In this document: one piece after another, positions 2,085 to 24,700 of the stretch
Position numbering within the stretch: position 1 is the stretch's first letter
Layout: each line of letters starts with the position of its first letter
Assembly: GCA_041641915.1 (NCBI GenBank)
Contig: JBEPXK010000001.1
Span: forward strand, 1-26,344
Direction of reading: 5' to 3'
Origin: Planctomycetota bacterium
GTDB taxonomy: Bacteria > Planctomycetota > UBA11346
DNA length: 26,344 bases
Made by a program: the position numbers and the translations under genes
Notes under the pieces: generated by a model
Databases searched by the model: none
Told to the model about the DNA's origin: nothing
Seen by the model: the letters and a program-made list of their open reading frames with translations, nothing else

Positions 2085-2108
2085 GCGCCCACCCGAGGAG
2101 GAACGGTG

Positions 2109-4972: not shown

Positions 4973-5144
4973 GGAAGACCTCCGATTCCGACGGCCGAGT
5001 CCCCTGCCGCGCCGCCTGCTTGGTGATGTCGACCCAGGGGGGTCCTGAAACCTTTGTAGCCGTGGGGATTGAGCTGGTCAATCATGCTTCCGAGCATCCC
5101 CGGACAGCCCCGCCGGGTCCGATCAAACACACCGGAGGCTTCTA

Positions 5145-5169
5145 TCAGAGGGGGCGCTGCCCCCTCTGA
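5145..5169. repeat. Intergenic palindrome, copy 1 (REP-like)
   Basis: TCAGAGGGGGC-GCT-GCCCCCTCTGA; exact reverse complement of 25588-25612. Confidence 0.8.
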
Positions 5170-5203
5170 GGGAGAGCTCACACCGGACAACGAGCGCGAA
5201 GGC

Positions 5204-7396: not shown

Positions 7397-7542
7397 CGCT
7401 CTCCCCCGGTAGCACCGGCGCAGCCTGACCGGGCCCAGCCCATCGCGGACCGCGAGCCGACGCCCCCGGTCCAGCATCGGCCCCGAGCGGGGAGGCTTGA
7501 GCTCGGGCTTGGCGCGCCTCTTGCTTCCATCGCGAGGATTCC

Positions 7543-10257
7543 TTGGTAGACGTGCGCCCCGCAATGCAGGAGCACCAACAGCAGGCGAGTAATCGACCGG
7601 ACGCCCCAGGCGATCAGGCCGATGCCCCCCCGTCGGAAGGCCGACGGCAACGGTGCTTCACCCTCCGGGCGCTGACGCTCGGGGCGGTCCTGACCGTGGT
7701 CTTCGCCCTGATCACCCCCTGGAACGACTGGTTCCTCGAGAACACCTCGCTCTATCTCCACTATCTGCCGCCGGCGGTGCTGCTGGTCATCCTGGTCATG
7801 GTGCTGGTGGTCAATCCCCTGCTCGGCCGACGCCGGTTCGCGCAGGGAGAACTGGTGGTGGTGGTGGCGATGCTGCTGGCCCTCGGCGGCGTGGTCAGCA
7901 GCGGCCTGGTCCGCTACCTGCCCGGCATGATCACCCTGCCCGCGACCCGGCTCAAACCGGGCGGCACCTACGAACGACTGCGCGAACCGCTCGGTCCGGA
8001 GGACCAGGCCGCCGCGCGCGCGCGCTTTGAGCGCCACCTCGCACGCCGTTTCGCACGGCTGGATGCCGACGGCAACGATACACTCAGCCCCAACGAACTC
8101 GGCGACGCCAACGCGCTCGCCACCGCCGACAGCGACAACGATGGCGCCGTGTCGCTGCCCGAGTACCGCGCCCACATCCTGCAGCAGGATCCGGACGCCC
8201 TGCCCGACGCCCGCTGGGCGCTGCCGCACGAGCTCTTCCTCGGCATCCCCCCGGTGGGCACGATCGCGCGTGACGATCCCGAATACCGCTACGTGGTCGA
8301 AGGCTACCTCAACGGCCTCGCCACCGCCGCCCAGGACGACGTGCGCCACCGTGCGCGCGTCACCTGGACCGAAGACGGCCAGCGCAATCAGGGCGAGGCG
8401 CTCGCCGGGCGCACGGCGATCGACCGCGGCATCGCCGGCGACACCGGCTTCCTCGATCTGGAGACCAGCCGGGTCGGCCAGGCGCTGCGCGGGCTCGAAC
8501 CGGGCGACCGGACCACGGTGGATACCGGGCGCAGCCACACCGCTGGGCCCGGCGAGACCGTGGGCGCGATCGCCCAGCGCTATTACGGCGACCCGGCCGC
8601 GGCCCCGGCGCTGCGCGCGGCAAATCCGCAGCTCGGCCCGGACGCGCAACCGGCACCGGGCACCACGCTCACCGTGCCGGTCCGGCTCACGGTCGAGGCG
8701 GTCGCGGATCCGCCCACGCCCTATTGGGCCTGGGTGGACCCGCTGCTGGCCTGGGCGCCGCTGCTGCTCGGCGCCTTCATCGCATCGATCGCCACGGCCT
8801 TCGTCCTCCGCCGCCAATGGATCCACCACGAACGCCTGCCCTACCCCATCGGCCAGGTGATGCTCTCCCTGCTCGAGCCGGCGCCACCGCGTCGCTCGTT
8901 CAACGCGCTGTTCACCAACCACGGCTTCTGGGCCGGCTTCGTGATCGTCTTCCTGCTGGTGTTGTGGAACGGCCTGGCGCGCTGGGGCCTGGTCGAGGTC
9001 GGCTTCCAGACGGTGTTCGACTTCTATAACGGTCCCGACGCTCCGTTCCAGGGCAGCCCCTGGCGTCAGGCCTACCGTCCGGCATTCCTCTTCATCCCCC
9101 GGATCTCCTTCAGCATCATCGCCCTGACCTTCTTCCTCGCGCTCGACCTCAGCTTCAGCCTGTGGTTCGCCTTCGTCGCGATCAACATCCTGTTCCTCGT
9201 CTCCTACAGCAGCGGAATCCCGCTGCACAAGGCGGACGTGCAGCAGGCGGGCGTCGGCGGCTACGCGGTGATGTGTCTGCTGATCCTCTGGCTGGGGCGC
9301 TCCCACTACCTCGCCCTGTTGCGCGCGGCCTTCACCGGACGCGGCGACGAACAGACGCGGCGTACCGTCCCGTACGTCTGGGCGCTGATCATCGGCGCCG
9401 TGACCATGGTCCTTGCCCTGGTCAGCTACGGGGCGGGGCCCGGCGCGAGCACCCTGGCGGTGCTGCTGTTCCTCGGTTTCATGCTGGTGGTCAGCCGGAT
9501 CGTGGCCGAAACCGGGATCCCCTTCATCCAGGTGCCGAACGAATGGACCGTCAACAGCGTGCTCTTCAGCGCGGTGGGCTTCAGCATGCCCCCCTCGGCG
9601 CTGATGCCGCTGACCCTCATCGGCATCAGCCTGATGGCCGACACCCGCGAATCGCTGATGCCCTACGCGGTCCAGACCTCGTATCTCGCCGACCACAGCG
9701 GAGCACCACCACGCCGCACCGGTGCAGTCATGCTGGTGGTCGTCTGCATCGGGATGCTGATCGCCGGCGCCTCGATGCTACGCCATGCCTACAGCGGCGA
9801 CGGACCCAAAGACACCAGCTGGCCCGGCTATCTGCTCGAGACCCAGGCCTTGAAGAAGGTCGCCGGTGGCATCCGGACCGAGGAACGTGCCGCGACCGAC
9901 CACGCCGCCCACGCCCACCAGGAACGCCAACAGCAACGCACCTGGACCGCCTACGGTGCCGGCGCCGGTCTGGTCGCCACGCTCGGCGTGCTGCGGATGT
10001 TCTTCGCTTGGTGGCCGCTGCATCCGATCGGCTTCCTCGCCGCCACCTCCTACCCCGCCTGGCTGATGTGGTTCAGCTTCCTGCTCGGCTGGGCATGGAA
10101 GGCGGGGGTGATGCGCTATGGCGGCTCCGGCGCTTATCATCGGCTCAAGGCGGTGGCCATCGGCATGATCGCCGGCGAGATGACCGCGCTGATCCTCTTC
10201 ATCATACTCAAGATCGCCAACCCGGACCGTCTCGGCGCCCTACGGATCCTCGGATGA
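7543..10257 (+). CDS. DUF6785/DUF6784-like multi-TM membrane protein with inserted EF-hand pair, GreA-C-like and LysM domains
   Basis: N-terminal FTLRALTLGAVL...LPPAVLL...NPLL...GELVVV and C-terminal WWPLHPIG...WFSFLLGWAWKAGVMRYGG...Y recall DUF6785/DUF6784. EF loops at 8062-8097 and 8128-8163; LysM at 8536-8679. Start is TTG 7543 (GAGGA upstream) or ATG 7564. Confidence 0.75.
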   Translation: MVDVRPAMQEHQQQASNRPDAPGDQADAPPSEGRRQRCFTLRALTLGAVLTVVFALITPWNDWFLENTSLYLHYLPPAVLLVILVMVLVVNPLLGRRRFAQGELVVVVAMLLALGGVVSSGLVRYLPGMITLPATRLKPGGTYERLREPLGPEDQAAARARFERHLARRFARLDADGNDTLSPNELGDANALATADSDNDGAVSLPEYRAHILQQDPDALPDARWALPHELFLGIPPVGTIARDDPEYRYVVEGYLNGLATAAQDDVRHRARVTWTEDGQRNQGEALAGRTAIDRGIAGDTGFLDLETSRVGQALRGLEPGDRTTVDTGRSHTAGPGETVGAIAQRYYGDPAAAPALRAANPQLGPDAQPAPGTTLTVPVRLTVEAVADPPTPYWAWVDPLLAWAPLLLGAFIASIATAFVLRRQWIHHERLPYPIGQVMLSLLEPAPPRRSFNALFTNHGFWAGFVIVFLLVLWNGLARWGLVEVGFQTVFDFYNGPDAPFQGSPWRQAYRPAFLFIPRISFSIIALTFFLALDLSFSLWFAFVAINILFLVSYSSGIPLHKADVQQAGVGGYAVMCLLILWLGRSHYLALLRAAFTGRGDEQTRRTVPYVWALIIGAVTMVLALVSYGAGPGASTLAVLLFLGFMLVVSRIVAETGIPFIQVPNEWTVNSVLFSAVGFSMPPSALMPLTLIGISLMADTRESLMPYAVQTSYLADHSGAPPRRTGAVMLVVVCIGMLIAGASMLRHAYSGDGPKDTSWPGYLLETQALKKVAGGIRTEERAATDHAAHAHQERQQQRTWTAYGAGAGLVATLGVLRMFFAWWPLHPIGFLAATSYPAWLMWFSFLLGWAWKAGVMRYGGSGAYHRLKAVAIGMIAGEMTALILFIILKIANPDRLGALRILG

Positions 10258-11156
10258 ACGACCAGCCCAGCCGCCTCTTCGCCATCCACGGATTCTACTT
10301 CCGCATTCCCGCCACCTGGGAGCTGCGGGTGAACAAGGGCTACTGGGGCAACGGCTATGAGATGTTCATCGATCATCGCACGCCGACGCTCAACCTGACC
10401 TGGGAGCGCTTCAGCCGCACCCCGGACTACGACCGCACGGTCACGCGCATGGCCAAGCGCGCAACCCAACACAGCGACCTCAAGCTCACGCGTACCGACC
10501 CGCTCACCGGCACGCGTCAGGGCCGACGCGTGCGCCTGGAGGGCAGCGAAGGCGTGTTCCACGCCGCAGTGGTCCGGCCCGATCCGGACGTGAATCTGGT
10601 GCTGGTCATCCGCCAGATGCTCCCCGGTTCGGCGCTGCCGCTCAACCGCCTGATCGATAGCGTCAAGGCGCTGGGCGAAGACGCGCCCACCCCCTGGCGC
10701 TTCCACGGCCTGGCCCTGGACCTGCCGCCGTGGTGGCGCCTGCACGGGACCGAACACATGGTCGGGCTGACGCGTGCGGTCTGGTTCCATCGCCCCAAGA
10801 ACCGCCTCAAGACCGCCGGCGTGCTGGTATTACGGCGCTATGCCTGCGCCAGCCGCATCCTGCGCGAAACCACCATCGATCAGTGGGTCGAGGAGCGGCT
10901 GGAGAAGCGCGAGACAATGCGCCAACGCGCGTACGCCTCGGACGGTACCTTCTCCGCCATCGCGGACGCCCCGGGGCTTTCGCCATGGCGACGCCTGCGT
11001 GGCGTGCGCGAAGAACGGCATCTGGCCGCTTGGATCGAAGAAGGGGAAGACCGGCTCGTGATACAGGAATGGAAGGGAGCGGGACCGCCACTGCCGCTCT
11101 TGCGTTATCCGCAAGACCCCGAGGATGGTGCGCTTCCGCGAATGGAGAATACCTAG
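10254..11156 (+). CDS. Hypothetical 300-aa soluble protein with two PsbP/DcrB-like repeats
   Basis: ATGA overlap with the upstream gene (true start inside track ORF 9162..11156). Internal repeat LFAIHGFYFRIPATWEL / WRFHGLALDLPPWWRL; no signal peptide or TM seen. Confidence 0.75.
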   Translation: MNDQPSRLFAIHGFYFRIPATWELRVNKGYWGNGYEMFIDHRTPTLNLTWERFSRTPDYDRTVTRMAKRATQHSDLKLTRTDPLTGTRQGRRVRLEGSEGVFHAAVVRPDPDVNLVLVIRQMLPGSALPLNRLIDSVKALGEDAPTPWRFHGLALDLPPWWRLHGTEHMVGLTRAVWFHRPKNRLKTAGVLVLRRYACASRILRETTIDQWVEERLEKRETMRQRAYASDGTFSAIADAPGLSPWRRLRGVREERHLAAWIEEGEDRLVIQEWKGAGPPLPLLRYPQDPEDGALPRMENT

Positions 11157-11530
11157 TGTCCAACCCGGCGCGACTGGACGCCGAAACCGTCGCCGAGGCG
11201 GTCCCCCGATTGCGGGAGGATGTCACCGTCTCGCAGGCCCCGGATGGGGCGATCCGCCTGCGTAGCGCCGAGCTCCGTCGCACCCGGCTCGGATCGGTGT
11301 TGGCCTGGTTGTTCCGCCTGCCCCTGCGGATCGAAGTCGAGCTGGACGAGATCGGTAGTTGGGTCGTCGCCCGGATGGATGGGCGATCGATGCAGGATAT
11401 CGCCACCGATCTCGCCGCCGACCGCAAGCTCACACTGCGTGAAGCCGAAGCCGCACTGACCGTTTTCGTCCAGTCGCTGCTCGCCCGGCGGCTCCTCACG
11501 CTCGAAGGGTTGATCAGGAGTTGTGCATGA
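11156..11530 (+). CDS. PqqD-family (RiPP recognition element, RRE) protein, 124 aa
   Basis: GTG 11156 overlaps the upstream TAG; GGAG RBS. VELDEIGSWVVARMDGRSMQDIATDLAADRKLTLREAEAALTVFVQSLLARRLL matches the PqqD pattern (LDxxGxxIWxxxDGxxTVxEI...L...L). Confidence 0.85.
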   Translation: MSNPARLDAETVAEAVPRLREDVTVSQAPDGAIRLRSAELRRTRLGSVLAWLFRLPLRIEVELDEIGSWVVARMDGRSMQDIATDLAADRKLTLREAEAALTVFVQSLLARRLLTLEGLIRSCA

Positions 11531-13167
11531 CCGAGATGCCCGAAGACATCGCCAAACGCAAGCTGGCCATGCTGGGCAAGCCGCCGATCCTGCCACTGAG
11601 CGTCCCGGCGCGCGTCGCCTGGGGATCGATCCGCATCCGTCTCTCCCGCAGCCTGGTGACCGTCTCGTCGGTCATCCTCGCCGTGGCCTTTCTGCTCGTG
11701 GTGCTCGGTGAAAGCCTCAGCACCACCGCGGTCTACCACACCTACAAGCGCCAGAACCGGCCGTTGGAGCGGGTGCAGACCCTGCACGCGGTGCTCGAAC
11801 GCCCCCGCAAGCGCATCGAACTGCTGCGGCTGCTCGCCGAGCAACCCGATCAGACGCGCTCCTGGCTCGCGAGCCACGACCTCGACCTGCCGCCGGCCTA
11901 CGAACCGCGTCATGCCGTCGCCCTGCTGACCCTGGCCGAATGGGCCAACGAACTCCAGCCCATCGCCCGCTACAAGATGCTCGGCAATCGCGATACCGCC
12001 GACTGGCTGTTCTCGCTGACCAGCGCAGAGCGCACCGAACAGGTGATCGCCAAGGCCCGCACCATCAACAGCCGGGCGCTGCCCTTCGGCCAGGTCGAGC
12101 TGGCCAACCTCAGCGAGAAGGTGCCGCTGGTCGAACAGGCGGTAGCAGCCGCAGTCACGGTCGAACGCGCGCGTCATCGCACCGTGCAGGAAGCCGGCGG
12201 CTCGAAAGCGGTCCTGCGCGAGCTGCGCGACCAGGGCGACCGGGAAGCGGTGGCGGCCATGGGCCTGCCGCTGCACCAGGTCCTGCCCGAGCTCGACCAG
12301 GCGGGCATGCGCGAGTTGCGCAACGAACTGGCCTTTGAGCCCTTGCGCGACCAGGCGCAGGAGATCGTCGCCACCATCAACCGGGTGTTCTCGCGCCTGC
12401 GCCCGTTGGGCATCCTCGCCCTGGCCAACGAGGACCTGCTGCAGGAAGGCGAGGGCTACGCCGCCGAGCTGCGCGAGCTGCTTGGGGAGCAAACGGCAAA
12501 CCAGGCCATCGCCGCCCTGGTCGAGGAACGCAGCCTGAAGCCCCTGCAACAGGCGCTCACCCAAGCAGAGGATGACGAGAACGCGCGCAAGACCATCGAT
12601 GTGGGCATCTCGGCCGAAGCCCGCTCGCTGCTGCTGTGGAAGCTGGCCGACCAGTTGACTGCAGAAGAACGCGAGCAGCTCGAAGCCTTCCTCGCCGAAC
12701 ACCGCGCGCTGTTCAACCTGCGTGATACCTTCCTCGATATCGGCTTCGATCCCGAGGGCACCCAAGAGAAGACCTTCTGGCTGCTGGTGCTTTCGATGCT
12801 CGTGTGCATCGTCGGGATCGTCAATTCGATGATGATGGCGGTGACCGAGCGTTTCCTCGAGATCGCGACCATGAAATGCCTCGGGGCGATGGACAGCTTC
12901 ATCCTCAAGGCCTTCCTGATCGAATCGGGCACCGTCGGCCTGGCCGGCAGCGTCCTCGGCGCCGTGCTCGGCGTGGGCATCGTGCTGGTCCAGGCCTCGG
13001 CCCGCTTCGGCAGCATCTACTGGGCCAGTTTCCCCGCCGCCGACCTCGCCAAGGCCGCCGGCGCCGCGCTGGTGACCGGTCTGGTCCTGACCATCGTCGG
13101 CGCGCTGCTCCCGGCCTACAAGGCTGCGCGCATGCACCCCATCGAAGCAATGAGATTGGAAGCCTGA
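11527..13167 (+). CDS. MacB/FtsX-type ABC permease
   Basis: ATGA overlap. N-terminal RLSRSLVTVSSVILAVAFL TM, about 350-aa helical loop, FtsX domain VGIVNSMMMAVTERFLEIATMKCLGA...FLIESGTVGLAGSVLG with 3 TMs. Confidence 0.9.
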   Translation: MTEMPEDIAKRKLAMLGKPPILPLSVPARVAWGSIRIRLSRSLVTVSSVILAVAFLLVVLGESLSTTAVYHTYKRQNRPLERVQTLHAVLERPRKRIELLRLLAEQPDQTRSWLASHDLDLPPAYEPRHAVALLTLAEWANELQPIARYKMLGNRDTADWLFSLTSAERTEQVIAKARTINSRALPFGQVELANLSEKVPLVEQAVAAAVTVERARHRTVQEAGGSKAVLRELRDQGDREAVAAMGLPLHQVLPELDQAGMRELRNELAFEPLRDQAQEIVATINRVFSRLRPLGILALANEDLLQEGEGYAAELRELLGEQTANQAIAALVEERSLKPLQQALTQAEDDENARKTIDVGISAEARSLLLWKLADQLTAEEREQLEAFLAEHRALFNLRDTFLDIGFDPEGTQEKTFWLLVLSMLVCIVGIVNSMMMAVTERFLEIATMKCLGAMDSFILKAFLIESGTVGLAGSVLGAVLGVGIVLVQASARFGSIYWASFPAADLAKAAGAALVTGLVLTIVGALLPAYKAARMHPIEAMRLEA

Positions 13168-13174
13168 CCAACCG

Positions 13175-16100
13175 ATGCGCCATATCCGACATCTGCCCCG
13201 TCTCTGCTGCCTCCTGCTCGTCGCCACCGCCGCCACCGCGGTCGAACCGGCGCTCAGCCCCGACCTCGAGCGGGTCCGTGCGCATGCCGAGGCCCTCCTC
13301 GCCATCCCCGATCGCTCCATGGGCTCGCCCGGCGCCGATGCCGCCGCCGATCTCATCCGCGAGCGCCTCGACGCCCTCGGACTGGAGGCCGATCGCATAC
13401 GCGAGGCCCGGACCACGGTCACCGTCCCGGTCGATCACGGCAGTTCGCTGCGCGTCGCCGCCGAGGGCGGTGAGACCATCATCCAGCTCGCGCCGCATGT
13501 TCCCAATGGCGCAGCACTCAACACCACCGGCGGCGAGCCGATCACCGGCCCGCTGGTGATCCTCGGTCGTGGCGACGCCGCGGCGCTGCGCGCCCACGGC
13601 AAGGATTTGCCAGGCAGCATCGTGGTGCTCGATGGCGATTCCGGCGACGCCTGGCTCGACTGTGCCGAAATGGGCGCCCTGGCGGTCATCTTCCGCAAGA
13701 GCGAACGCATCGACCACCATCAGCTCACGCAGCAGTTCGTCACCGCCAGCCTCTCCTTCCCCCGCTTCGTCGGCGAAATCGACGACGCGCTCCAGGGCGC
13801 CGAGGCGACGCTGACCAGCACCGTGACCATGGAACGGCGCAACGTGCGCACCCTCTGCGCCCTGATCGAAGGCGAGATCGGCCAGCACACCGCGGTCCTC
13901 GCCAGCGGGTACGAAGCCGCTGGCCTGATCCCCGGCCACGATCCCGCCGCGACCCGCGCCTGGAACGCCGCGCTCCTGCTCGAACTCGGACGCCAATTCG
14001 CGGAGCATCCGCCACGCAACAACATCCTGCTGGTATTCCACGGCGGACGGGCCGAGCACTTCCGCGGTCTGCGCATGCTGCTCGCCAGCCTCAACGATCC
14101 GGCCCTGAGCCAGAACGAGAACACCACCGCGATCGAGGCCAAGCGCCTCGCACTGGATATCTGGCGTACCGAACAGGTCCGCCGGGCCTTCACCGCATTC
14201 CTCGACCAGACCGACGAAGCCTCGCCCGAAACCATCACCATCGCCAAACTCGAGGAATTGCTGCGCGCGATCAACGAGGATACCCTCGAACCCTTCCTCG
14301 AGGAGGACGAGCCGCAGGCGACCACCGCCACGATACCGGAAGCCGATGCCAAGCAGGTGCGTCGCGGGGTGGTCAATCGCATCCTGGCGGTGTTCTTCAC
14401 CGCCGGCCTGATGCTGGTGTTTTTCATCCGTTGGCGGACCGGCCGGCCGGGCTGGTTCCTGCTCACGGCGATCGCCATCGGCGGCGGACTGGTCATCTAC
14501 CAGCTGGTCGCACCGGTCGAACCGGAAACGATCGTGACCGAAGTGGCCGAGGAGCGCAAACAGGTCGAGGACCTCGGGCTCGCCTTCCTCTCCGAGGAGG
14601 CCGGTCGCCGGGCCGACCAGGAACAACCGGTGGTCGAACGTCTGCGCCTCTACACCAAACTGACCGAGAAACAGAAGGTCAGCGCGGAGAACCGGCTGCA
14701 GAGACTGCTGTTGCAGGAAGAACTCGAAGCCCTGCGCGGCGAGGCCCTGCCCAGCGACCGGGAGCGACTCGTGAAGCTGACCGCCGACCTCGGCGACCAC
14801 ATCCAGTTGATGCGCGACGTGCAGCAGAAGCTGGGCAAGATGGAGCTCAACGACCGCGAGGCCGCGGTGGTCCGCCCGATGATCCTCGATCTGCTCGGCG
14901 ATTCGGACGAGGCCGACACGATCATCGGCAGCCACCTGCGCACGCTGCGTCTGCGCCACCGCGACCTCCAGGATGCGCTCGCGATCCAAGAGATGGTCGG
15001 CCCGGGCCGCACCGCCCTACTGATCGGCTTCGACCTGACCGACGGCAACTGCGCCTTCTCCGCCGCGGTGCTCGGCTCGATCGCCGCCGCCGCCAAGAAG
15101 CTGACCTGGATCGGCAACGAGTGCCAGCGGGTGGCCCATGATCTGGACACCGATCACCTCGACGGCGCGCTCGCTTTCGACCCCTCCCCCTACGGCCAGC
15201 ACCACGGCAGCCCCACGGCGTGGTGGCCGCAATTCTACGCGCACGAGGCCGGCGTCGCCAACCTCTACCTCAACGCGCTGACCCTCTCGACGGTCAACGA
15301 CAAGCGCGCCAAGATCGGCACGCCCCAGGACACCGCCGCCGCCTTCGATACCGGAACCGGCGAGGGTCCGGGATATTTCGCCCGTCAGACCCGGGGCCTG
15401 ACCGCCCTGGTGCGCGACCTGGTCGAAAACACCAATTACACCAGCAAACGCCTCGACCTGGTCAAGAAGGGCCTGGCCTGGAAGACGGTCGAAATGCAGA
15501 CCGAGAGCCGCGGCAGCGCCACCGGCCTCAAGGGCTTCCCCTTCGGTGAGCTCCACGTCCAGGAAGGCCCGGCGCTGGGCTACTTCCCCGACGTGCGCCC
15601 GGTGCAGATCTTCTGGACCGACGCCTTCGGCAAGGTCACCGTCCCCTGGCTGCCGAACCAGCTCAACGAACCCAACCCCGGTACCTGGGCGCTGCTTCCC
15701 TTCGCCCACGATTCCGTCGGCCGGCTGACCCATGTGCTGACCGTCGGCAAGCAGAAGACCGCCGGGCTCAACGCGCAGGGCTTCGACGTCAAGGGCTCGC
15801 TGCGCGACATGCTCACGCAGGTCTTCGCCTGCCAGACCAGCCAGCTCTACAACCTGACCAATCCGCGTTCGATGATGCCGCTCAACGAGGTCCGGGTGCT
15901 CAGCTCCAGCCGTGACGCCCCACCCGATGCGAGCTATTTCGAGAGCGACGGCCAGGTCGCTGCCGTGTTCGCGACCAAGGGCACCCGCCTGCGCATCATC
16001 GCCCGCCAGGGCTCCGTCGGCCGCGAATACCTCCTGCTCGGCGACCACGAACAGGGCGACGAATTCCTCGGCCTGCGTCCCGGTGGCCCGTTGAACTCGG

Positions 16101-18928
16101 TGCTGGCACGCACGCTGCGCCCCAGCGTCGATCCCACCGCCGCGGCCGGGCAGACGGCCCAACCCGATCCCGCGCCGGAGGCCGACAGCGACGAGGAGCA
16201 ACCGGAGGCGAGCGACGGGCCGGCCGTGGCCGATCTGCCCGCGACCGCCGATAAAGACGCCATCCCGCTGGTGCTGGCCGAGCGCGCTGCTGCCCCTGCG
16301 GCCCTGGCGGTCGCCCAGGACTTCTTCCAGATCTGCCGCGCGCGGCTGGAGCGGCTGCAGCGCTTCGGGATCAACCCAGAGAGCCTGTGGGCGCTGCACG
16401 CCAAGGCCCAGTCCGAGCTCGACGAGGCCAAGCGGCTGCTCAAGGCCGGCGACGTCCAAGGCGCCGAAGGCGCAGCCGAGGCCGCCTGGTCGCTTGAGAA
16501 CCGGGTCTATCCCGCCCTGCTGGCAACCGCCAACGACGTGGTCTACGGCCTGGTGGTGATGCTGATTCTGGCCATCCCTTTCAGCATGATCTGCGAACGC
16601 CTGTTCGTCAGCGGCAACACCATTTTCACCAAGGTCGCGGGCTTCGGCGCCTTCTTCGTTGCCACCTTCCTGTTCTTCTTCTTCTTCCATCCCGCCTTCA
16701 GCCTGGCGGTGACGCCGATCATCATCTTCCTCGCCTTCGTGATCATCGTGATGAGCGTATTGGTGATCGGGATCATCTACCGCCAGTTCGAGGCCAGCAT
16801 GACCCAGATGCGCATGCAGGGGCTGGGCATGCACCGGGCCGACGTCAACCGTCTGGGCACCCTGCTGGCCACCGGTCAACTCGGCATCAGCAACATGCGC
16901 CGGCGTCCGTTGCGCACCTTCCTCACCGCAACCACCGTGGTGCTGATGACCTTCATCCTGCTGACCTTCGCCGGTTTCGGCAGCAAGGCTGGGATCCGCC
17001 AGCAGGACCTCGAGGTCGCGCCGGCCTACAACGGCATTTTCCTCTCGCAGCCCGGCTGGCTGCCCTTCGCCGAGAACAGCGTGGATCGCACCGTCAACAC
17101 CTGGGACCGCGACCTGCACGTCTTCCCCCGGCGATGGCTGATGGCCGGCGTCGACGTCCCCCGCTTCGATATCAACCACCCCGAGGGCGACGAACCGACC
17201 TCGCTCATGGGTGTGGTCGGCGTCGATCCCGGCGACCCCTCGGGCGCCGAACGCTCCGCCCTGCGCGTGTGGTTCGAAGACGGCGAACGTCACACCGCCA
17301 CCGGTTTCGCGAGCGACGAGGACTGGATCTTCCTGCCCCAGCGCCTGATCGACAACTCGGGCTATCGCGAGGGCGATAGCATCCCCTTCCAGGGCCAGCG
17401 CCTGCGCCTCGGCGTGCTGCAACAGACTGGCGACGATGCTTTCACCAAAGTCACCCATCTCGACGGCAGCCCCTTCACCCCGCTGGCGCCCGAGGCGATG
17501 GACGAGGAACAGCGCAAGCACTTCCAGGAGATGAAGAAGCAGGCGGCCGAAGGCGGCGAGGTGGTGGTCGAATCAACTTCGCTGACCCACCTCGATGCCG
17601 ATCAGGTCGCCCTGACCTCCAATGCGGTGCTCGCGCGACTGGGAGCCGAAATCCGTTCGATCGCGATGGTGCCGTGGACGGATGCAGCCCGCCAACAGCA
17701 GCGCGATCCCGAGCGACATCTGCCCGCCGAGCTCGCCGATCTCGACGAACTCGGCGCCGAGGTCACCAATCAGCTCGCACTCAGCGTCCTGCTCGGCAAC
17801 AAGGGCAAGACGCATCGGATGACCGCGGTCGGCCAGCTGGCCATCGGCGGTCTGGCCGACGTGCTCATCCCGCTGATTCTCGGCGGCATGATCATCTATT
17901 CGACCATGCTCGGATCGGTGGCCGAACGTGGGAAGGAGATCTTCATCTACTCCTCGCTCGGTCTGGCTCCGATCCATATCGCGGCGCTGTTCCTGGTCGA
18001 GGCGACCATCTACGCGGTGATCGGTGGCATGGGCGGATACATCGTCGCGCAGATGCTCATCGCCTTGCTCGGCTTCCTCGCCGATGTCGGGCTGCTCGCG
18101 ACCCAGCCCGACATCAACTATTCGAGCTTCACCGCGGTGATCACCATCCTGCTGGTCATGGCCACGGTCCTGCTCTCAGCGCTCTACCCGGCCTTCGTCG
18201 CCTCGCGGGCGGCCAATCCCGGCACCGAGCGCCGCTTCCGCGTTCCGCAACCCGACGGTGACGACCTCGACATCGAATTCCCGTTCACCGTCGCCGCGCG
18301 CGATATCCGCGGTCTGCTCGCCTACCTGAAGACCTTCATGGATGCCAACACCGAAGCCTCGACCGGCTGCTTCACCGCCGCCGATGCCGAGATGGTCGCC
18401 GATGGCGACATCTTCGCCGTGCTGGCCAGGACCTGGCTGGCGCCGTTCGATCTCGGCATCAGCCAGACCTTCCGCATGACCGCCAAGCCGACGGACATGA
18501 AGGCCATCTACAGTATCCACATCTCGCTGCATCTGCTCTCCGGCCAGCGCAGTGCCTGGCGTCGGGTGACCATCCCCTTCATCCAGGAGCTGCGGCAGCA
18601 GTTCCTGGTCTGGCGGACCCTCGATGAGCAGACCACCGATCGCTACCGCGCCGCCGGTGGCGACCCCGATGCCGCGCAGCGGGTGGCCGAACATGAGCGC
18701 GAGGCCGCAGTCCAACGGGTCCAGGCCGAGAAGGACATGAAACACCACCATCGCCGCGGCGGGCCGGAAACCAAACCGGCCGCAGACGACGCGGAACAGC
18801 CCGAAGACAAGCCGGCAGCACACAAGGTCGAAGGGGTCGCCGACACCGACGACGCGGCGCCTCCACAAGCAGCGCCACCCCCCGAGGAGGTCGAAGGTGA
18901 TGAGCAGCGCAAAGGAGGGCGGTCATGA
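13175..18928 (+). CDS. 1917-aa fusion: signal peptide, degenerate M28 peptidase/PA-like region, extra TMs, MacB/FtsX permease, C-terminal cytoplasmic domain
   Basis: Sec signal MRHIRHLPRLCCLLLVATAATA. M28-like scaffold around AVLASGYE, NAALLLELGR, ILLVFHGG, IGFDLTDG, GTPQDT. MacB TM1 ISNMRRRPLRTFLTATTVVL; FtsX YSTMLGSVAERGKEIFIYSSLGL...FLVEATIYAVIGG. Confidence 0.85.
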   Translation: MRHIRHLPRLCCLLLVATAATAVEPALSPDLERVRAHAEALLAIPDRSMGSPGADAAADLIRERLDALGLEADRIREARTTVTVPVDHGSSLRVAAEGGETIIQLAPHVPNGAALNTTGGEPITGPLVILGRGDAAALRAHGKDLPGSIVVLDGDSGDAWLDCAEMGALAVIFRKSERIDHHQLTQQFVTASLSFPRFVGEIDDALQGAEATLTSTVTMERRNVRTLCALIEGEIGQHTAVLASGYEAAGLIPGHDPAATRAWNAALLLELGRQFAEHPPRNNILLVFHGGRAEHFRGLRMLLASLNDPALSQNENTTAIEAKRLALDIWRTEQVRRAFTAFLDQTDEASPETITIAKLEELLRAINEDTLEPFLEEDEPQATTATIPEADAKQVRRGVVNRILAVFFTAGLMLVFFIRWRTGRPGWFLLTAIAIGGGLVIYQLVAPVEPETIVTEVAEERKQVEDLGLAFLSEEAGRRADQEQPVVERLRLYTKLTEKQKVSAENRLQRLLLQEELEALRGEALPSDRERLVKLTADLGDHIQLMRDVQQKLGKMELNDREAAVVRPMILDLLGDSDEADTIIGSHLRTLRLRHRDLQDALAIQEMVGPGRTALLIGFDLTDGNCAFSAAVLGSIAAAAKKLTWIGNECQRVAHDLDTDHLDGALAFDPSPYGQHHGSPTAWWPQFYAHEAGVANLYLNALTLSTVNDKRAKIGTPQDTAAAFDTGTGEGPGYFARQTRGLTALVRDLVENTNYTSKRLDLVKKGLAWKTVEMQTESRGSATGLKGFPFGELHVQEGPALGYFPDVRPVQIFWTDAFGKVTVPWLPNQLNEPNPGTWALLPFAHDSVGRLTHVLTVGKQKTAGLNAQGFDVKGSLRDMLTQVFACQTSQLYNLTNPRSMMPLNEVRVLSSSRDAPPDASYFESDGQVAAVFATKGTRLRIIARQGSVGREYLLLGDHEQGDEFLGLRPGGPLNSVLARTLRPSVDPTAAAGQTAQPDPAPEADSDEEQPEASDGPAVADLPATADKDAIPLVLAERAAAPAALAVAQDFFQICRARLERLQRFGINPESLWALHAKAQSELDEAKRLLKAGDVQGAEGAAEAAWSLENRVYPALLATANDVVYGLVVMLILAIPFSMICERLFVSGNTIFTKVAGFGAFFVATFLFFFFFHPAFSLAVTPIIIFLAFVIIVMSVLVIGIIYRQFEASMTQMRMQGLGMHRADVNRLGTLLATGQLGISNMRRRPLRTFLTATTVVLMTFILLTFAGFGSKAGIRQQDLEVAPAYNGIFLSQPGWLPFAENSVDRTVNTWDRDLHVFPRRWLMAGVDVPRFDINHPEGDEPTSLMGVVGVDPGDPSGAERSALRVWFEDGERHTATGFASDEDWIFLPQRLIDNSGYREGDSIPFQGQRLRLGVLQQTGDDAFTKVTHLDGSPFTPLAPEAMDEEQRKHFQEMKKQAAEGGEVVVESTSLTHLDADQVALTSNAVLARLGAEIRSIAMVPWTDAARQQQRDPERHLPAELADLDELGAEVTNQLALSVLLGNKGKTHRMTAVGQLAIGGLADVLIPLILGGMIIYSTMLGSVAERGKEIFIYSSLGLAPIHIAALFLVEATIYAVIGGMGGYIVAQMLIALLGFLADVGLLATQPDINYSSFTAVITILLVMATVLLSALYPAFVASRAANPGTERRFRVPQPDGDDLDIEFPFTVAARDIRGLLAYLKTFMDANTEASTGCFTAADAEMVADGDIFAVLARTWLAPFDLGISQTFRMTAKPTDMKAIYSIHISLHLLSGQRSAWRRVTIPFIQELRQQFLVWRTLDEQTTDRYRAAGGDPDAAQRVAEHEREAAVQRVQAEKDMKHHHRRGGPETKPAADDAEQPEDKPAAHKVEGVADTDDAAPPQAAPPPEEVEGDEQRKGGRS

Positions 18929-20922
18929 GCAAGGCCCTCGCTGATAAGGAACTCAACCAATATCGCGACCTCATCCAGCCACCGGGCTATTTCGAGGAGG
19001 GCTTCACCTGGCGCACATTGCTGGGCACCGTCTTCGTCGGCGTGGTCATGCTGCCGGCGGCGATGTACATGCACCTGATGATCGGCAGCATCAGCCTGGC
19101 CCCCGCGGCCAAGTGGGTGACGGTCATCCTGTTCCTCGAGATCGCCAAGCGCGCCCGCAGCTTCCTCAAGCCGGCCGAGCTGCTGGTGTTGATGAGCCTG
19201 ATCACTGCCTTTGTCGGCACCACGCCGATCGAGGGTTTCTTCTGGAAACAGTACGTCGTCCAAAGCGATGCGGCCCGATCATTCGGGCTTGAAGGCTTGT
19301 TCCCAGACTGGTACGCGCCGACGAGCGAAGAGGTGCTCGATCGGCGGTCGTTCTTCCAGGCGGAATGGGTGTTGCCGATCGTGCTGATCTTCCTGCAGCA
19401 GGCGATCGGACGCGCCGACAGTCTGATCCTCGGTTACGGCTTGTTCCGCCTTACCAGCGACGTGGAGAAGCTCCCCTTCCCCATGGCCCCCCTCCAGGCT
19501 TCGGGCATCCTCGCACTCTCCGAGGACACCACCGCCAAGGATGGCTGGCGCTGGCGCTGCTTCTCGATCAGCGCCTCGATCGGTATGATCTTCGGCCTGC
19601 TCTACATCGCCATTCCCACGATCACCAGCACCTTCCTCGATGAACCGTTCCAGATATTCCCCATCCCCTGGTTGGATACGACCCAGGCGACCCAGGAGGT
19701 GTTGCCGGCGACGGCCACGGGCATCAGTTTCGATCTGAGCAACTTCTTCTTCGGCATGGCCTTCCCGTTCTTCGCCGTGCTCGGCAGCTTCATCGGGCTG
19801 CTGGTGACCTTCATCGCCAACCCCGCGCTGCACGACGCCGGCATCCTGCATACTTGGAAGCCGGGCATGAGCACAGTCGAAACCATGTTCGCCGACAACA
19901 TGGACTTCTACCTCTCCTTCGGTATCGGCCTCTCGGCGGCGGTGGCGGTGATCGGCTTGGCCCAGACCTTCGGCAAGGTGCGCAAGGCCAAGGCACGCGG
20001 GCCGACCCTCGACGTGGCCGAGAAGCCGAAGGTGACCAAGGTCCAGGGCGTCTCGCGCGGGGACATCCGCACCGTGACCATTCTCCTCGCCTACCTCGTC
20101 TCCTGCAGCGCCTACATCGTGATCAGTGGCGTGTTGCTCGACTGGGATTTCGGCGGTGGCGGCGCCCTGCTCTGGGTCCTGCTGTTCTTCGCCTTCATCT
20201 ACGTCCCCTTCATCAGCTACACCACCGCCCGTCTCGAAGGCCTCGCCGGCCAGGTCATCGCGCTACCGATGGTCAAGGAGGCGGCGTTCATCCTCTCCGG
20301 CTATCAGGGCATCCAGTGCTGGCTGCTACCGATCAGCTGGCACCACAACTACGGCATCGACACGGTGCAATACCGCGTTGCCGAACTGGTCGGCTGTTCC
20401 TTCCGTTCGATCTGGAAGGCCAAGGCGGTGCTGTTGCCGACGGTGTTCCTGTTCTCGCTGATCTACGGTCAGTTCATCTGGAGCCTCGGCCCGATTCCCA
20501 GCGCCAAGTACCCCTTCGCCCAGGAGATGTGGGATCTGCACGCCCGCAACCAGATCCTGATCTGGACCTCGACCATGGGCGGCTACAGCCCCTTCATGGA
20601 CGCCATCAACGGCTTCTACATCGCCGCTGGCGGCGTCATGGGGTTGGTGGTCTACACCACCCTGTCCGCCTTCGGCCTGCCGATGCTGCTGCTCTACGGC
20701 ACGGTCAAGGGACTGGGGCAGACGCTGCCGCAGATGGTGGTGACCCAGATGCTCGGTGCGCTGTTCGGGCGCTTCGTCATGGCCAAGAAGTTCGGCCCCG
20801 ACCGCTGGCGTCAGTACGCCATCGTCCTCTCGGCCGGCTTCGGCTGCGGCACCGGACTGATCATGATGTTCTCCACCGGCGTGCGTTTCCTCGCGTCCGC
20901 CGTCTACCAGAAACCGTTCTGA
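18925..20922 (+). CDS. OPT/YSL-like multi-TM putative peptide transporter
   Basis: ATGA overlap. Many TM segments; FEEGFTWRTLLGTVFVGVVMLPAAMY and EKLPFPMAP recall OPT-superfamily patterns (FTxRA..., LPFP). Confidence 0.7.
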   Translation: MSKALADKELNQYRDLIQPPGYFEEGFTWRTLLGTVFVGVVMLPAAMYMHLMIGSISLAPAAKWVTVILFLEIAKRARSFLKPAELLVLMSLITAFVGTTPIEGFFWKQYVVQSDAARSFGLEGLFPDWYAPTSEEVLDRRSFFQAEWVLPIVLIFLQQAIGRADSLILGYGLFRLTSDVEKLPFPMAPLQASGILALSEDTTAKDGWRWRCFSISASIGMIFGLLYIAIPTITSTFLDEPFQIFPIPWLDTTQATQEVLPATATGISFDLSNFFFGMAFPFFAVLGSFIGLLVTFIANPALHDAGILHTWKPGMSTVETMFADNMDFYLSFGIGLSAAVAVIGLAQTFGKVRKAKARGPTLDVAEKPKVTKVQGVSRGDIRTVTILLAYLVSCSAYIVISGVLLDWDFGGGGALLWVLLFFAFIYVPFISYTTARLEGLAGQVIALPMVKEAAFILSGYQGIQCWLLPISWHHNYGIDTVQYRVAELVGCSFRSIWKAKAVLLPTVFLFSLIYGQFIWSLGPIPSAKYPFAQEMWDLHARNQILIWTSTMGGYSPFMDAINGFYIAAGGVMGLVVYTTLSAFGLPMLLLYGTVKGLGQTLPQMVVTQMLGALFGRFVMAKKFGPDRWRQYAIVLSAGFGCGTGLIMMFSTGVRFLASAVYQKPF

Positions 20923-20943
20923 GTCCAGCAGGGATCGATTGAC

Positions 20944-21756
20944 ATGACCGAAGACACCCACGACCCGCAGGCGATCTACCAGACCTACTGGGACCCGGAG
21001 CACGTTTCCGACCACGGCGACTATGCTCGGGGCAAGGAAGTCATCGTCCGCGCCCGCGATGTGAAGAAAATCTACAAGGCGGAGACCGACAACCCGGTGC
21101 ACGCCCTGCGCGGGATCACGATGGAGATCTACACCGGCGAATACCTCGCCATCATGGGTCCCTCCGGCTCGGGCAAGTCGACCTTCTTCAATGCCATCGG
21201 CGGTCTGGACAAGCCCACCTCCGGGCAGGTCTACATCGACGAGGTCGACATCGCCCAGCTCGACCCCAAAGAGCTGGCCTGGCTGCGGTGCCGCAAAATC
21301 GGCTACATCTTCCAGAGCTACAACCTGATCACGGTGATGACGGCGATGGAAAACATCATGTTGCCGATGACCTTCGCCGCGACCCCCGCCGACGAGGCAC
21401 GCGAGAAGGCTTTCGAGCTCTGCCGCCTGGTCGGCATCGACCACCGCGCCGACAACAAGCCGGCCGAACTCTCCGGTGGTCAGCAGCAGCGCGTGGCCAT
21501 CGCCCGCGCGTTGGCCAACGACCCGGCTATCATCCTCGCCGACGAGCCGACCGCTAACCTCGACTTCCGCACCGGCAAGGAGATCATCGAGCTGATGGTC
21601 AAGCTCAAGCAGGAGAAAGGCGTGACCGTGATCTCCGCGACCCACGACCACGAGATGCTCGCCATTTCCGATCGGATCATGTGGATCCGCGACGGTCAGG
21701 TCGATCGGGTCGAGTTGCAGAAGGACCTCAAGATCCAGAAGGGCAGCATCGAGTAG
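20944..21756 (+). CDS. ABC ATPase, LolD/MacB/FtsE type
   Basis: Walker A GPSGSGKST, Q-loop GYIFQSYNL, signature LSGGQQQRVAIARAL, Walker B ILADEPT, H-loop SATHD. Confidence 0.95.
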   Translation: MTEDTHDPQAIYQTYWDPEHVSDHGDYARGKEVIVRARDVKKIYKAETDNPVHALRGITMEIYTGEYLAIMGPSGSGKSTFFNAIGGLDKPTSGQVYIDEVDIAQLDPKELAWLRCRKIGYIFQSYNLITVMTAMENIMLPMTFAATPADEAREKAFELCRLVGIDHRADNKPAELSGGQQQRVAIARALANDPAIILADEPTANLDFRTGKEIIELMVKLKQEKGVTVISATHDHEMLAISDRIMWIRDGQVDRVELQKDLKIQKGSIE

Positions 21757-21777: not shown

Positions 21778-24700
21778 TCAGCGCTGGCGGCGCCGTTTGC
21801 GCCAGGACTCGAGCGCCGGGTCGGGGGTCCATTTCCCGACCTGGAGCCGTCCGAACTGCTCGAGTGCCGGGCGCTGCGGGTCGAGCTGCTGCCAGCGGCT
21901 GACGAACACCGGTTCGGCCCGGTGGTAGCGGATCAGATCGAAGGGAACGGTCGTCCCCTCCGCCGGTCGCTCGTCGAAGCCGAGCGCGCGCCACGGCACG
22001 CTCCACTCCATCACCCAACCCGCGGCATCGCGGCCGCAGGCCACGCGCACATCGGCCAGGGTGAAATCCGGATCCTCGCCACGCAGGTCCGTCACCACCC
22101 CCGCGGCGTTGACCACCAGCCGGACGGCTGCCGCCACCCCCTGTGGCTGCCACCGCACCTCCACCGCGTCGTCCTGCCATACCGCGCCGTCGCGGGTATC
22201 CACCGTGCAGCTCGGCACCTCACCGCCGACCACCGGGCAACGGACCACCCCGTAGAGCCGCTGTGCGTCGGCCACCAGAGTGGCCCAGGCATCGACCGGG
22301 GGGTGGGTATAGTCATCGCGGTCGAGCAGGCCCCAGGCGTCGTAGGCGCGAAAGCGGTGTTCGTGGCGCCACACGGCATCATCGTCGCGCCCGTCAATGA
22401 CCGGCGCGGTGGCGTCCGCGGCGATGGCGGCGCAGTTGACCCGGCGCAGCTTGCGCACCAGCTGGAGCGATTCCTCCAGGCGCCGCTCCAGCTTGTGCCG
22501 CAGCCACTGCCCCGGCGAGAACCGCCGCCGCGCCAGTTGTGTCGCCTCCGCCAGCAGCCCGAGCATCTGCGCGAGATGGCCGCGCCGCCACTCGAGATCG
22601 GCGAGCATGCTCAGCGCCAGGATCCGGGGCGGATGATCGTCGCCAGTGCGGGTGTGGATGCGCTGCTCGAGTTCACGCAATTCCTCCACCGCCTGTTCGA
22701 GCTCTCGCGTCTGGCCGACACACTGCGCGCGGTAGGCCCGCGCGACGAGCACCTCGTGATGGTCGGGGCCGAGGGTGCGACTACCGCGATCGATCGCGGT
22801 ATCGAATGCCGCCACCGCCGCGTCCAACCGGCCGCGCCCGTAGTGCACCTTACCGGCACGCACCAGACATTCGATCGTCAGCGGATGTCCTGCCCCAAGC
22901 ATGCGTTCGCAACGTACACGCGTCTCGTTCACCAGGTCGAGCGCCGCGTCGTCGTCGAGCACGGCCGCGAGCGCGATGGCGCAATCGATGGCGATGCGAT
23001 GATCCGGCCCCAGCTGTTGCAGACTCGCGGTCCGCACCGCGCGCAGCTCCTTTTCGGCCCGGGCGAACGCGCCGCGCCAATAATAGGCCCGCCCGCGCAG
23101 GACCCGGGCCGCGAGCAACATCACATCCTGTTCCCCGGCGTGGGCCGCCTGTTCGCGACAGAAGCCCTCAAGCTCCTCGAGCACCAGGGCGTGTTCGCCG
23201 GCCTCGTGCAGATGCTCGATCGCACGCAGGCGACAGTCCATGGTCTGCGGATGATGCGGCCCAAGTTCGCGCTCGCACAAGGCCCGCGCCTCGCGGTGGA
23301 CCGCCGCGGCGCGCTTGCGCTGCCCGGTCAGATAGAGCCAGCGCCCACGCAACAGGTCGATCGCCACCCGCTCATCGAACGGCAGATCCGCCACGGCCGC
23401 TGCGGCTTCATGCAGCTGCGCCAGCGCGGGGCCGGCCTGGACCAGGCGACCGGCTTCGATCGCCGTCTGGACCAGAAGACGGCGGGTGGTGATGACCTCG
23501 CCCTGCGCCGGTCCCAGGCGCGCCAGCTGTTCGACCAACACCGCCGCCAGCAGTTCTTCGGCCTCGCGCAGGTGGAACTGCTGGAGTTTCAACGCGCCGA
23601 GGCGCTGACGCACCAGCAGATCGAAAGCCCCGCTGCCGGCGCTATCCGCCGCCAGAGCACGTTCGAGATGCTCCTGCGCCTGCTCGAAGCGACTGAGCGC
23701 GGCGAAGGTGCTGCCCAGGGTGAGGTGCAGCTGCTGCTGGAGCTCAGGGCTGTGCGCCACCGTGCGTTGCGCCCGCGCCGAAGCGGCTTCGAGCACCTCG
23801 AGCACGCTGACATCCAGACCCATCCGCGCCGGATCGGCCGATTCGAGCATGTCCTGCAGGAAGGCGTTGATCACCTTGACGTTCGCGCTTTCGGTCCGGG
23901 CCACCGCCTCGGCCACGGCGGCCTTGTCGCGCTGGGCCCGGGCCTCGTCGCGCGCGGCGAGCGCCAACGCGCGTTCGTGCTGGATACGGAAAAACGCCAC
24001 CGCCACCACCACGCATACCGCGGCGGCGAGAATCGCCGCCGCTCGGGTCATCAGCCGCAACCGCCGCGCATGGATCTCGCGCTGGCGCAATGCCGCACCG
24101 ACCTCGGCCCGGAAATCCGCCTGGTCCTCACCCTCTTCGTTCAGCAGGCTCTGCGCCAGCTCAAGGTCGCCGTGGGTGAAGGCGCTACGTGCGTACGCCA
24201 CCCGCAACACGGACATGCCCGCGCGCGCACGCTGGTTCTCCTGCCACAGCGCCACCGCCTCCTCGTAGGCGAACAGCGCCCGGGCATAGTCCTCGTAGCG
24301 CCCGTCGGAGCGGGCGGTCTTCGCATGCGCTTCGGCCTCGTCGGTGAGCACCAGGCTCTCCGCGTGGGCCTGGTAATCGCGAATCGCGGCCGCGAAGGCC
24401 CGGGCGTCGGCATAGCGGTCCGCCGGATCCGTGGCCATCGCGCGGTAGGCGATCCGTATCAGTTCGCCATCGGCGTCCACCGGCACGATCGCGTTGCTCG
24501 CGGCTTTGGCCAGACACTCCATCACCGACGAGCCCCGATGCGGCCGCTGCCCGGTGACGATCTCGAACAGGATCGCCCCGAGCAGGTAGACATCGCTGCG
24601 TACCCCGATGCGGGCGATATCGGCCTGGGCCATTTCGGGGGCCATATAGGCCGGGGTTCCGCCGGTGACGTTCTTTTGCGTCAACGCCACCGCCTTGGGG

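Follow-up and report, generated by a model that had tools for sequence, protein, structure and literature searches.

Do seven closely coupled genes on a planctomycetotal contig make one machine, and if so, what does it move? The contig in question, JBEPXK010000001.1, is a 26.3-kb stretch that we refer to as the window; it is one of the 913 contigs of a metagenome-assembled genome (MAG) that is about 85% complete. The genes, here called G1 to G7, had been predicted from the sequence alone to encode an ATP-driven complex that captures a peptide or protein and moves it across or within the envelope (the original prediction). We are highly confident that the operon encodes one inner-membrane machine, consisting of an ATP-binding cassette (ABC) engine of type VII, a giant outer domain, two OPT-fold proteins and a pair formed by G2 and G3. 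Our view of what the machine does is far more tentative and is set out after the evidence on its conservation and its parts.

Conservation and co-occurrence of the seven genes

All seven open reading frames (ORFs) are open and co-directional on the + strand at 7564-21756. G1 (7564-10257, +) encodes 897 amino acids (aa) from its ATG, the first in a frame that is open from TTG 7543; it is followed by G2 (10254-11156, +, 300 aa), G3 (11156-11530, +, GTG start, 124 aa), G4 (11527-13167, +, 546 aa), G5 (13175-18928, +, 1917 aa), G6 (18925-20922, +, 665 aa) and G7 (20944-21756, +, 270 aa including a 34-aa N-terminal extension). The junctions are exactly as had been described: ATGA overlaps, read directly from the sequence, at 10254-10257, 11527-11530 and 18925-18928, a TAG/GTG junction of G2 and G3 with one common base at 11156, and gaps of 7 nt between G4 and G5 (13168-13174) and of 21 nt between G6 and G7 (20923-20943). 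Upstream of G1 lies a divergent gene for a 786-aa polytopic membrane protein without a Pfam match (5204-7564, -), and downstream of G7 a convergent Ser/Thr kinase-TPR gene (21778-25488, -); flanked in this manner, the block is a self-contained operon-like unit.

A scan for relatives of G6 with one genome per species yielded more than 584 loci, of which the best 80, together with three others, were analysed with iterated hidden Markov models (HMMs) built from the window proteins. Adjacency of these gene families recurs in about 80 species genomes from at least six phyla and in three different gene orders, in agreement with the proposal that they form one conserved module; a lack of co-occurrence in other genomes, which had been named beforehand as a refutation, was not observed. 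Carriers were found in Planctomycetota, Verrucomicrobiota, Kiritimatiellia, Lentisphaeria/Victivallales, Fibrobacterota/Chitinivibrionales, Desulfobacterota and Acidobacteriota. A survey of the Planctomycetes-Verrucomicrobia-Chlamydiae (PVC) group, Armatimonadota and archaea had been suggested; PVC genomes do carry the module, the range is wider, with Desulfobacterota as the largest group among the analysed loci, and none of the best 80 loci is archaeal. The Planctomycetota-type order is that of the window. The PVC-type order is G1, small FtsX gene, ATPase gene, giant gene (G5), OPT gene, ATPase gene, G2 and G3, or has G2-G3 in front, and the Desulfobacterota-type order is minimal FtsX gene, ATPase gene, giant gene, G1, G6, a gene for a secreted protein of about 200 aa, G2 and G3. 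Cultured carriers include Solidesulfovibrio aerotolerans DSM 16695, Desulfovibrio sp. DV and Verrucomicrobia bacterium LW23, and the module is also present in a MAG of enrichment-grown Candidatus Kuenenia stuttgartiensis.

Co-occurrence at the genome level was counted in a sample of 151 Planctomycetota genomes, which include related genomes that are not independent, so that no P-value is attached. The giant gene was scored at E 1e-38 or better, in frames of at least about 740 aa and mostly longer than 1100 aa. G6 is present in 23 of the 151 genomes, the giant gene in 24 (all 23 with G6, plus genome G100) and G2 in 22 (21 of the 23 with G6, plus G100), while neither the giant gene nor G2 was found in the other 127. 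Weaker matches to the N-terminal domain of G5 elsewhere fall mostly in frames of 400-750 aa, which we read as ordinary M28 peptidases; in a few cases a longer frame is matched in part. G2 can lie on another contig than the remaining genes, as in genome G012, yet co-occurs with them, and the copy numbers of the three families agree in genomes with several systems (for example 4/4/4 in G101 and 3/3/3 in G050 and G143). The pattern is far from chance. It is an accessory system, found in about 15% of the Planctomycetota sampled and, in some genomes, in several copies. Genome G100, from the same family as the window, contains four giant matches, one G2 and no G6-type OPT gene at E 1e-30 or better, which may reflect either a more divergent OPT partner or an incomplete assembly.

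Some lineages have additional genes within or beside the module. The protein of about 200 aa encoded between the OPT gene and G2 in Desulfobacterota has a signal peptide and no Pfam match, occurs in 22 loci (for example L038:12027-12647, L040:11176-11772 and, duplicated, L030:4725-6041) and may be a lineage-specific periplasmic subunit. Beside Desulfobacterota modules there also recurs a partner-switching set in which a STAS protein and an RsbW-like kinase are accompanied by a cNMP-binding protein, a 5TMR-LYT/SpoIIE phosphatase and an ABC exporter of type I with about 840 aa (for example L038:14209-15739 (-), L046:11963-13357 and L050:15272-17794 (-)), and a sigma-54 regulator and DnaJ recur as further flanking genes. 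We set these flanking genes aside as a functional clue and regard them as lineage synteny, although the partner-switching set could represent either regulation or plain synteny. In a single Verrucomicrobiae locus (L007:13960-16120) the module is directly followed by genes for TonB, ExbB and two ExbD proteins, and a Peptidase_M3-domain gene, found at that locus only, comes after one gene without a Pfam match.

Composition of the machine

The giant protein G5 begins with an N-terminal anchor and a PA/M28-like domain (residues ~25-350), which are followed by a transmembrane (TM) hairpin insert (residues 351-450, window 14225-14524), a periplasmic region with helical, alpha/beta and beta-sandwich parts (residues 455-1120), a conserved 3-TM block (residues ~1125-1200), a canonical MacB/Lol-type FtsX unit (residues ~1240-1680) and a conserved cytoplasmic tail domain (residues 1690-1850). 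Pfam FtsX matches G5 at 1567-1678 (1.2e-8), and a profile of the C-terminal half matches MacB, YtrF, LolF and LolC in the PDB (6.5e-13 to 8e-8); its alignments to LolF and MacB cover TM2-4 and a portion of the periplasmic domain. G4 is the second FtsX protein (Pfam 5.9e-15 at 419-538, with LolC/E, MacB and FtsX rows in NCBIfam) and consists of TM1, some 350 aa of helical loop and three C-terminal TMs. The length of this loop depends on the lineage: the protein has about 490 aa in total in PVC genomes and about 230 aa in Desulfobacterota, where the loop is nearly absent. Of the MacB/FtsX system that had been proposed, the FtsX part is thus visible in Pfam for both G4 and G5, and no MacB_PCD Pfam match was obtained.

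The FtsX unit of G5 and the C-terminus of G4 are related (hhalign Prob 98.4%). A duplicated FtsX permease of the ADOP or YbbP type within G5 was considered and rejected, as the 3-TM block reached an hhalign Prob of at most 0.4% against either FtsX unit. With one detectable FtsX unit in G5 and another in G4, the sequences are most simply read to mean that the two permeases would form a single LolC/LolE-like heterodimer on a dimer of the ATPase G7, for which a ratio of 1:1:2 fits. G7 is the sole ATPase gene of the operon and matches ABC_tran (8.1e-35), LolD (1.6e-65), the N-terminal half of MacB (7.8e-63) and FtsE (6.1e-58); its best NCBIfam rows are LolD, MacB and DevA, and Walker A, the signature, Walker B with its Glu and the H-loop are all intact by reading. 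An ATP-driven envelope complex, as originally predicted, fits this type VII ABC core.

Most PVC relatives have a second ATPase gene, which the window operon lacks. In a tree of the ATPases, one clade (support 0.999) unites all 50 of those whose gene comes after the small FtsX gene, and a separate one (0.999) unites 28 of the 33 encoded after the OPT gene. G7 and four single-ATPase relatives from Planctomycetota are sister to the former clade (0.82, midpoint rooting), although G7 follows the OPT gene. One ATPase type is therefore universal, and the second is confined to the two-ATPase (PVC-type) loci.

The N-terminus of G5 gave no Pfam match on its own sequence. A profile of 40 orthologues, however, matched the PA-M28 aminopeptidase 2ek8 (4.8e-21) and YwaD (5.3e-19), and also the transferrin receptor, nicastrin and nicalin; a language-model feature search likewise points to M28. 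For the comparison of motifs we used what we take to be the metal-ligand residues of M28 (H-x-D, D, E-E, D/E, H). Where 2ek8 has its motifs HHD, DD and EE, the consensus of the G5 family has f-y-D, r-e and h-a and the window protein, by reading, G-Y-E, T-R and R-A, and no His, Asp or Glu occurs in the invariant or near-invariant columns of the domain. Because the catalytic motifs of M28 are not conserved, we read the domain as a putative pseudo-peptidase, a binder rather than an enzyme. The predicted peptidase-like scaffold (Peptidase_M28) is hence upheld as a fold by the profile, not as a Pfam match of the protein itself nor with its catalytic motifs.

Residues 351-450, 951-1050 and 1851-1917 of G5 are inserts that are missing from most orthologues. 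The first of these is a two-TM hairpin between the M28-like domain and the remaining outer domain; it corresponds to 82-97% gaps in the orthologues and leaves the topology unchanged. An AlphaFold2 (AF2) model of residues 455-1125 (mean predicted local distance difference test, pLDDT, 73) is made up of helical-bundle, alpha/beta and beta-sandwich parts, and its only structural neighbours are generic helical-bundle and beta-sandwich proteins. PDB sequence searches returned nothing relevant for the tail domain or for the 455-1125 profile, and Pfam gave no match for the excised G4 loop or for the middle, second outer domain and tail of G5.

Two polytopic membrane proteins accompany this engine. 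G1, which we read as OPT-fold-like, matches Pfam DUF6785 (5.5e-71; 240 bits against a cut-off of 25) and DUF6784 (1.1e-22; 80.5 bits against 26.4). G6 by itself has no Pfam match, even at E 10, and PDB sequence searches with the single sequence and with a profile gave nothing relevant. OPT is matched by 17 of 26 G6 orthologues (best 6.8e-12), and among at least 1654 homologues, those that are about 50% identical carry PF03169, some being named 'OPT/YSL family transporter' by their sources. The OPT call for G6, which fails on G6 itself, therefore holds through its orthologues, and we regard G6 as a probable, divergent OPT-family polytopic membrane protein. It is also the most conserved part of the module, with a mean column identity of 61% and more than 100 invariant columns in a 26-sequence alignment. 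The TM core is highly conserved as well, while the periplasmic domains vary and the cytoplasmic pair changes fast. BLASTP detected no similarity between G6 and G1; in a profile-profile comparison they were weakly linked (Prob 29.5%, E 5.7e-4) and had an E[KR]LP[FY]P motif in common.

In G1 of the window, TM3 is followed by some 270 aa of additional loop, which the positive-inside rule predicts to be periplasmic and which has two EF-hand-type loops (DxDxDG-type visible) and a LysM-like segment. The LysM score was 18.2 bits for the full protein and 20.7 bits for the excised loop against a Pfam cut-off of 20.9; the EF-hand matches were also under their cut-off, and a LanM-like match reached 27 bits. 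G1 orthologues are typically about 660-720 aa long, as compared with 897 aa here, and the region of the insert is mostly gaps in them. The EF-hand/LysM insert is therefore outside the conserved machine, and LysM, which had been counted among its parts, has to be removed from the list. A second DUF6785/DUF6784 paralogue of 978 aa is encoded elsewhere in the same genome (contig C18, L089:365-3301, -), next to a TPR protein and unknown genes and with no FtsX or ABC gene beside it; the family therefore occurs outside the machine too.

The remaining two genes encode what we take to be a cytoplasmic pair. G2, left without a name in the original prediction, had no Pfam or NCBIfam match and diverges fast, with a mean column identity of 18% and near-invariant positions limited to P, W, L, R and the initial Met. 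Its AF2 model, built from a 70-sequence alignment, has a pLDDT of 94.4 and a predicted template modelling score (pTM) of 0.89. The N-terminal domain (residues 1-140) has the Mog1/PsbP/DcrB/Eag-chaperone fold, with Mog1, PsbP, BT_1490 and TplEi at Z 11-12, and the C-terminal domain is weakly START-like (Z 7). By reading, G2 lacks a signal peptide, and it shows no conserved catalytic-type residues; it was therefore taken as a cytoplasmic binding protein, not an enzyme. An HPr-kinase-like enzyme, as found beside some lasso-peptide recognition proteins, was rejected for G2 given the absence of a P-loop by reading, the lack of conserved catalytic residues and the Mog1/PsbP fold.

G3 scored 25.2 bits against the PqqD cut-off of 23.4, and PqqD was matched by 34 of 35 G3 orthologues (best 2e-14). 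The family profile matches a lasso-peptide PqqD chaperone (9x90_B, 2e-7), PqqD (3g2b) and TbiB1 in the PDB, all of the type known as RRE, the recognition element for ribosomally made and post-translationally modified peptides. G2 and G3 are fused into a single protein of 435-461 aa in three loci (L020, L021 and L023), and an AFDB model of 426 aa that is named 'PqqD family protein' matches the G2 fold. These fusions argue that the Mog1/PsbP-fold adaptor G2 and the PqqD/RRE protein G3 form one functional unit. The families named in the original prediction stand for the most part: profile matches bear out those of G1 (DUF6785/6784), G3 (PqqD), G4 and G5 (FtsX) and G7 (ABC ATPase).

Outside the operon, the window contains carA (2106-3263), a purE-like ORF (3260-3763) and an unassigned ORF that extends to 4584. 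The start region of the divergent 786-aa gene abuts the start of G1, and the promoter region may be common to both. This minus-strand gene explains the strong A-over-T skew of the + strand at 5-7 kb, and the + strand ORFs at 5069-6112 and 6182-7549 look spurious; many long ORFs on both strands of the window are artefacts of its 68% G+C content. The nearest protein relatives of the window genes are from Planctomycetota, and the sole sequencing run that contains the full stretch is a hypersaline-lake metagenome; all runs found to match were of DNA, none of RNA. A public contig that is 99% identical to the window is labelled 'uncultured Brocadiaceae', which is odd given the G+C content and the hypersaline-lake source.

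Proposed peptide uptake and its alternatives

The explanation that we tentatively prefer, though with well under even confidence, is that the machine takes up periplasmic oligopeptides or peptide conjugates with the assistance of ATP. This reading is suggested by three independent parts that come from peptide-handling families, namely OPT, PA/M28 and PqqD/RRE, and characterised OPT members are importers. A peptide or protein cargo, as in the original prediction, is likewise an analogy drawn solely from the known roles of these families. The pseudo-aminopeptidase domain of G5 would capture the end of a peptide, and the ATP-driven movement of the FtsX pair would be transmitted outward, as in MacB and LolCDE, so that the ligand is handed or forced into the OPT-fold channel or channels. 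Inside the cell, the G2-G3 unit would bind the incoming peptide or gate the ATPase in response, and the complex may be anchored to the cell wall by the Ca-binding/LysM-like loop that G1 has gained in the lineage of the window. Genes for membrane-fusion proteins or outer-membrane factors were found neither in the window nor in three Pfam-annotated relatives nor in the recurrent neighbour families scanned; with no conserved MacA/TolC-type partner, the machine is therefore not a MacAB-like efflux pump.

Several observations nevertheless weigh against uptake. The known type VII ABC systems act on periplasmic or outer-leaflet substrates, and to our knowledge none drives import. OPT carriers are proton-coupled and need no ATPase, and G6 itself remains under every Pfam threshold. 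The usual ligands of RRE domains are precursor peptides that the cell itself makes and has not yet modified, and these would suit export better. G6 retains 47-50% identity across phyla, and such conservation is more in keeping with one universal cargo, for example a component of the envelope, than with nutrient peptides of many kinds. The module is patchily distributed, and its conserved neighbours include no gene for a peptidase or for peptide catabolism.

Some of these observations are better accommodated by export or secretion, in which G2-G3 would recognise a cytoplasmic peptide or unfolded segment, an OPT-fold protein would carry it across the inner membrane, and the type VII ABC with its giant domain would release, process or pass it on. 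The PDB neighbours of G3 have the fold known for binding leader peptides in the cytoplasm, the Eag/SciW chaperones that share the N-domain fold of G2 hold hydrophobic segments of secreted effectors, the known type VII ABCs act outward, and the NCBIfam rows for G7 include bacteriocin and darobactin exporters. However, neither a precursor-like small ORF nor a tailoring enzyme is conserved in the window or in the recurrent neighbour families of the 80 loci, an outer-membrane exit component is not conserved, and OPT proteins of known function import, so that we hold export to be unlikely, if a serious contender. A similarly modest chance is given to envelope remodelling or quality control without bulk transport, by which, in the manner of FtsEX-EnvC or LolCDE, ATP hydrolysis would move the giant domain and control a wall or lipoprotein process, for example one involving peptidoglycan stem peptides, with the OPT-fold proteins recycling fragments. 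The FtsX/Lol-type engine speaks for such a role, as does the very high conservation of G6 across phyla, which suggests one universal ligand; the LysM-like segment in G1 of the window lineage could bind the wall, and dead M28 domains have a receptor or gatekeeper role in two of the profile matches, the transferrin receptor and nicastrin. A patchy system with up to four copies per genome would be unusual for a housekeeping envelope function, though, no hydrolase partner of the EnvC/PcsB type is conserved nearby, and LysM is both under threshold and part of an insert that typical-length orthologues lack.

We consider it improbable that the machine takes up metal chelates or other small molecules in the manner of YSL proteins, with the OPT-fold proteins carrying a metal-ligand complex, the M28 domain capturing it and the EF-hand loops binding metal. 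The OPT/YSL family does include metal-chelate carriers, the N-terminal profile of G5 matches the transferrin receptor, G1 contains EF-hand and lanmodulin-like loops, and TonB-ExbBD genes lie directly downstream in the Verrucomicrobiae locus mentioned above. Yet the EF-hand insert is missing from orthologues of typical length, the TonB adjacency is confined to that one locus, and chelator-biosynthesis genes are not conserved nearby. Least probable of all, to the point that we nearly dismiss it, is that separate transporters stand together by chance or local synteny and form no single machine. The promoter and terminator scans of the operon, which gave results at chance level only, would be in line with mere proximity, but three gene orders across at least six phyla, co-occurrence in genomes even when the genes are unlinked, the agreement of copy numbers and the G2-G3 fusions all argue against it.

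Relation to known systems

LolCDE resembles the machine in having two different FtsX-type permeases and one gene for a LolD-type ATPase; LolD is the best NCBIfam row for G7, and LolC, LolE and LolF are among the PDB matches of G4 and G5. Here, however, one permease is a giant of 1917 aa that contains a PA/M28 pseudo-peptidase as well as unknown domains, the obligatory partners are two OPT-fold proteins and an adaptor of Mog1/PsbP plus PqqD, and all scores fall far short of the equivalog cut-offs (49 bits as compared to 362 for lolCE, 221 as compared to 308 for LolD). A link to LolA/LolB was not seen, no test having been aimed at one. In MacAB-TolC, MacB is the top solved-structure match of the FtsX unit of G5 (2.2e-6 with the single sequence, 6.5e-13 with the profile), whereas in the machine the ATPase is separate from the permease and the module has no gene for a MacA-type adaptor or a TolC-type channel. 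With FtsEX-EnvC and FtsEX-PcsB the machine shares an ATP-driven FtsX engine that would move a large extracytoplasmic domain, and possibly a link to the wall via the LysM-like loop; it differs in having no hydrolase or EnvC-like partner, in being patchy and multi-copy, and in its OPT-fold partners.

The accessory parts also have relatives in other settings. The 17 of 26 G6 orthologues that match PF03169, and the weak relationship of the G1 family profile to that of G6, link the machine to OPT/YSL carriers, but the known carriers work alone on the proton gradient, whereas the two OPT-fold proteins of the machine are always encoded with the ABC engine. G3 belongs, by Pfam and PDB profile, to the same fold family as the discrete RREs (PqqD, and lasso B1/E proteins such as TbiB1). 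Its partner, unlike theirs, has a Mog1/PsbP fold, and the two are in some cases fused; no radical-SAM, YcaO or lasso B2/C gene, no lasso cyclase or protease gene and no precursor gene was found beside G3, either in the window itself or in the set of conserved neighbours from the 80 loci. The transferrin receptor, nicastrin and nicalin likewise combine a PA/M28 fold lacking conserved catalytic motifs with a place as outer receptor of a membrane complex; they are eukaryotic and act in another context, while the domain in G5 is situated within the outer loop region of an ABC permease. In a full-text search of the literature, we found no paper on DUF6785/6784 or on the combination of genes, consistent with the expectation that no characterised system has this set. 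We regard the machine as a type VII ABC with an unprecedented set of partners.

Type VII ABC systems are each defined by the target of their outer domain, whether drugs and toxins, lipoproteins, wall hydrolases or haem, and the machine would add a widespread and unstudied branch to them. Its elucidation would provide the first functional context for two large families, DUF6785/6784 and that of G2, and for bacterial OPT proteins, and since cultured carriers exist, the question is directly testable. It is possible, if doubtful at present, that the machine represents a hybrid class of transporter in which a type VII ABC engine feeds peptides via a dead-aminopeptidase receptor into OPT-fold channels, with an RRE-type receiver in the cytoplasm. 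If so, it would be the first ATP-assisted use of an OPT protein and the first importing type VII ABC, and the peptide-recognition fold of the RREs would be shown to work outside the pathways of peptide natural-product synthesis.

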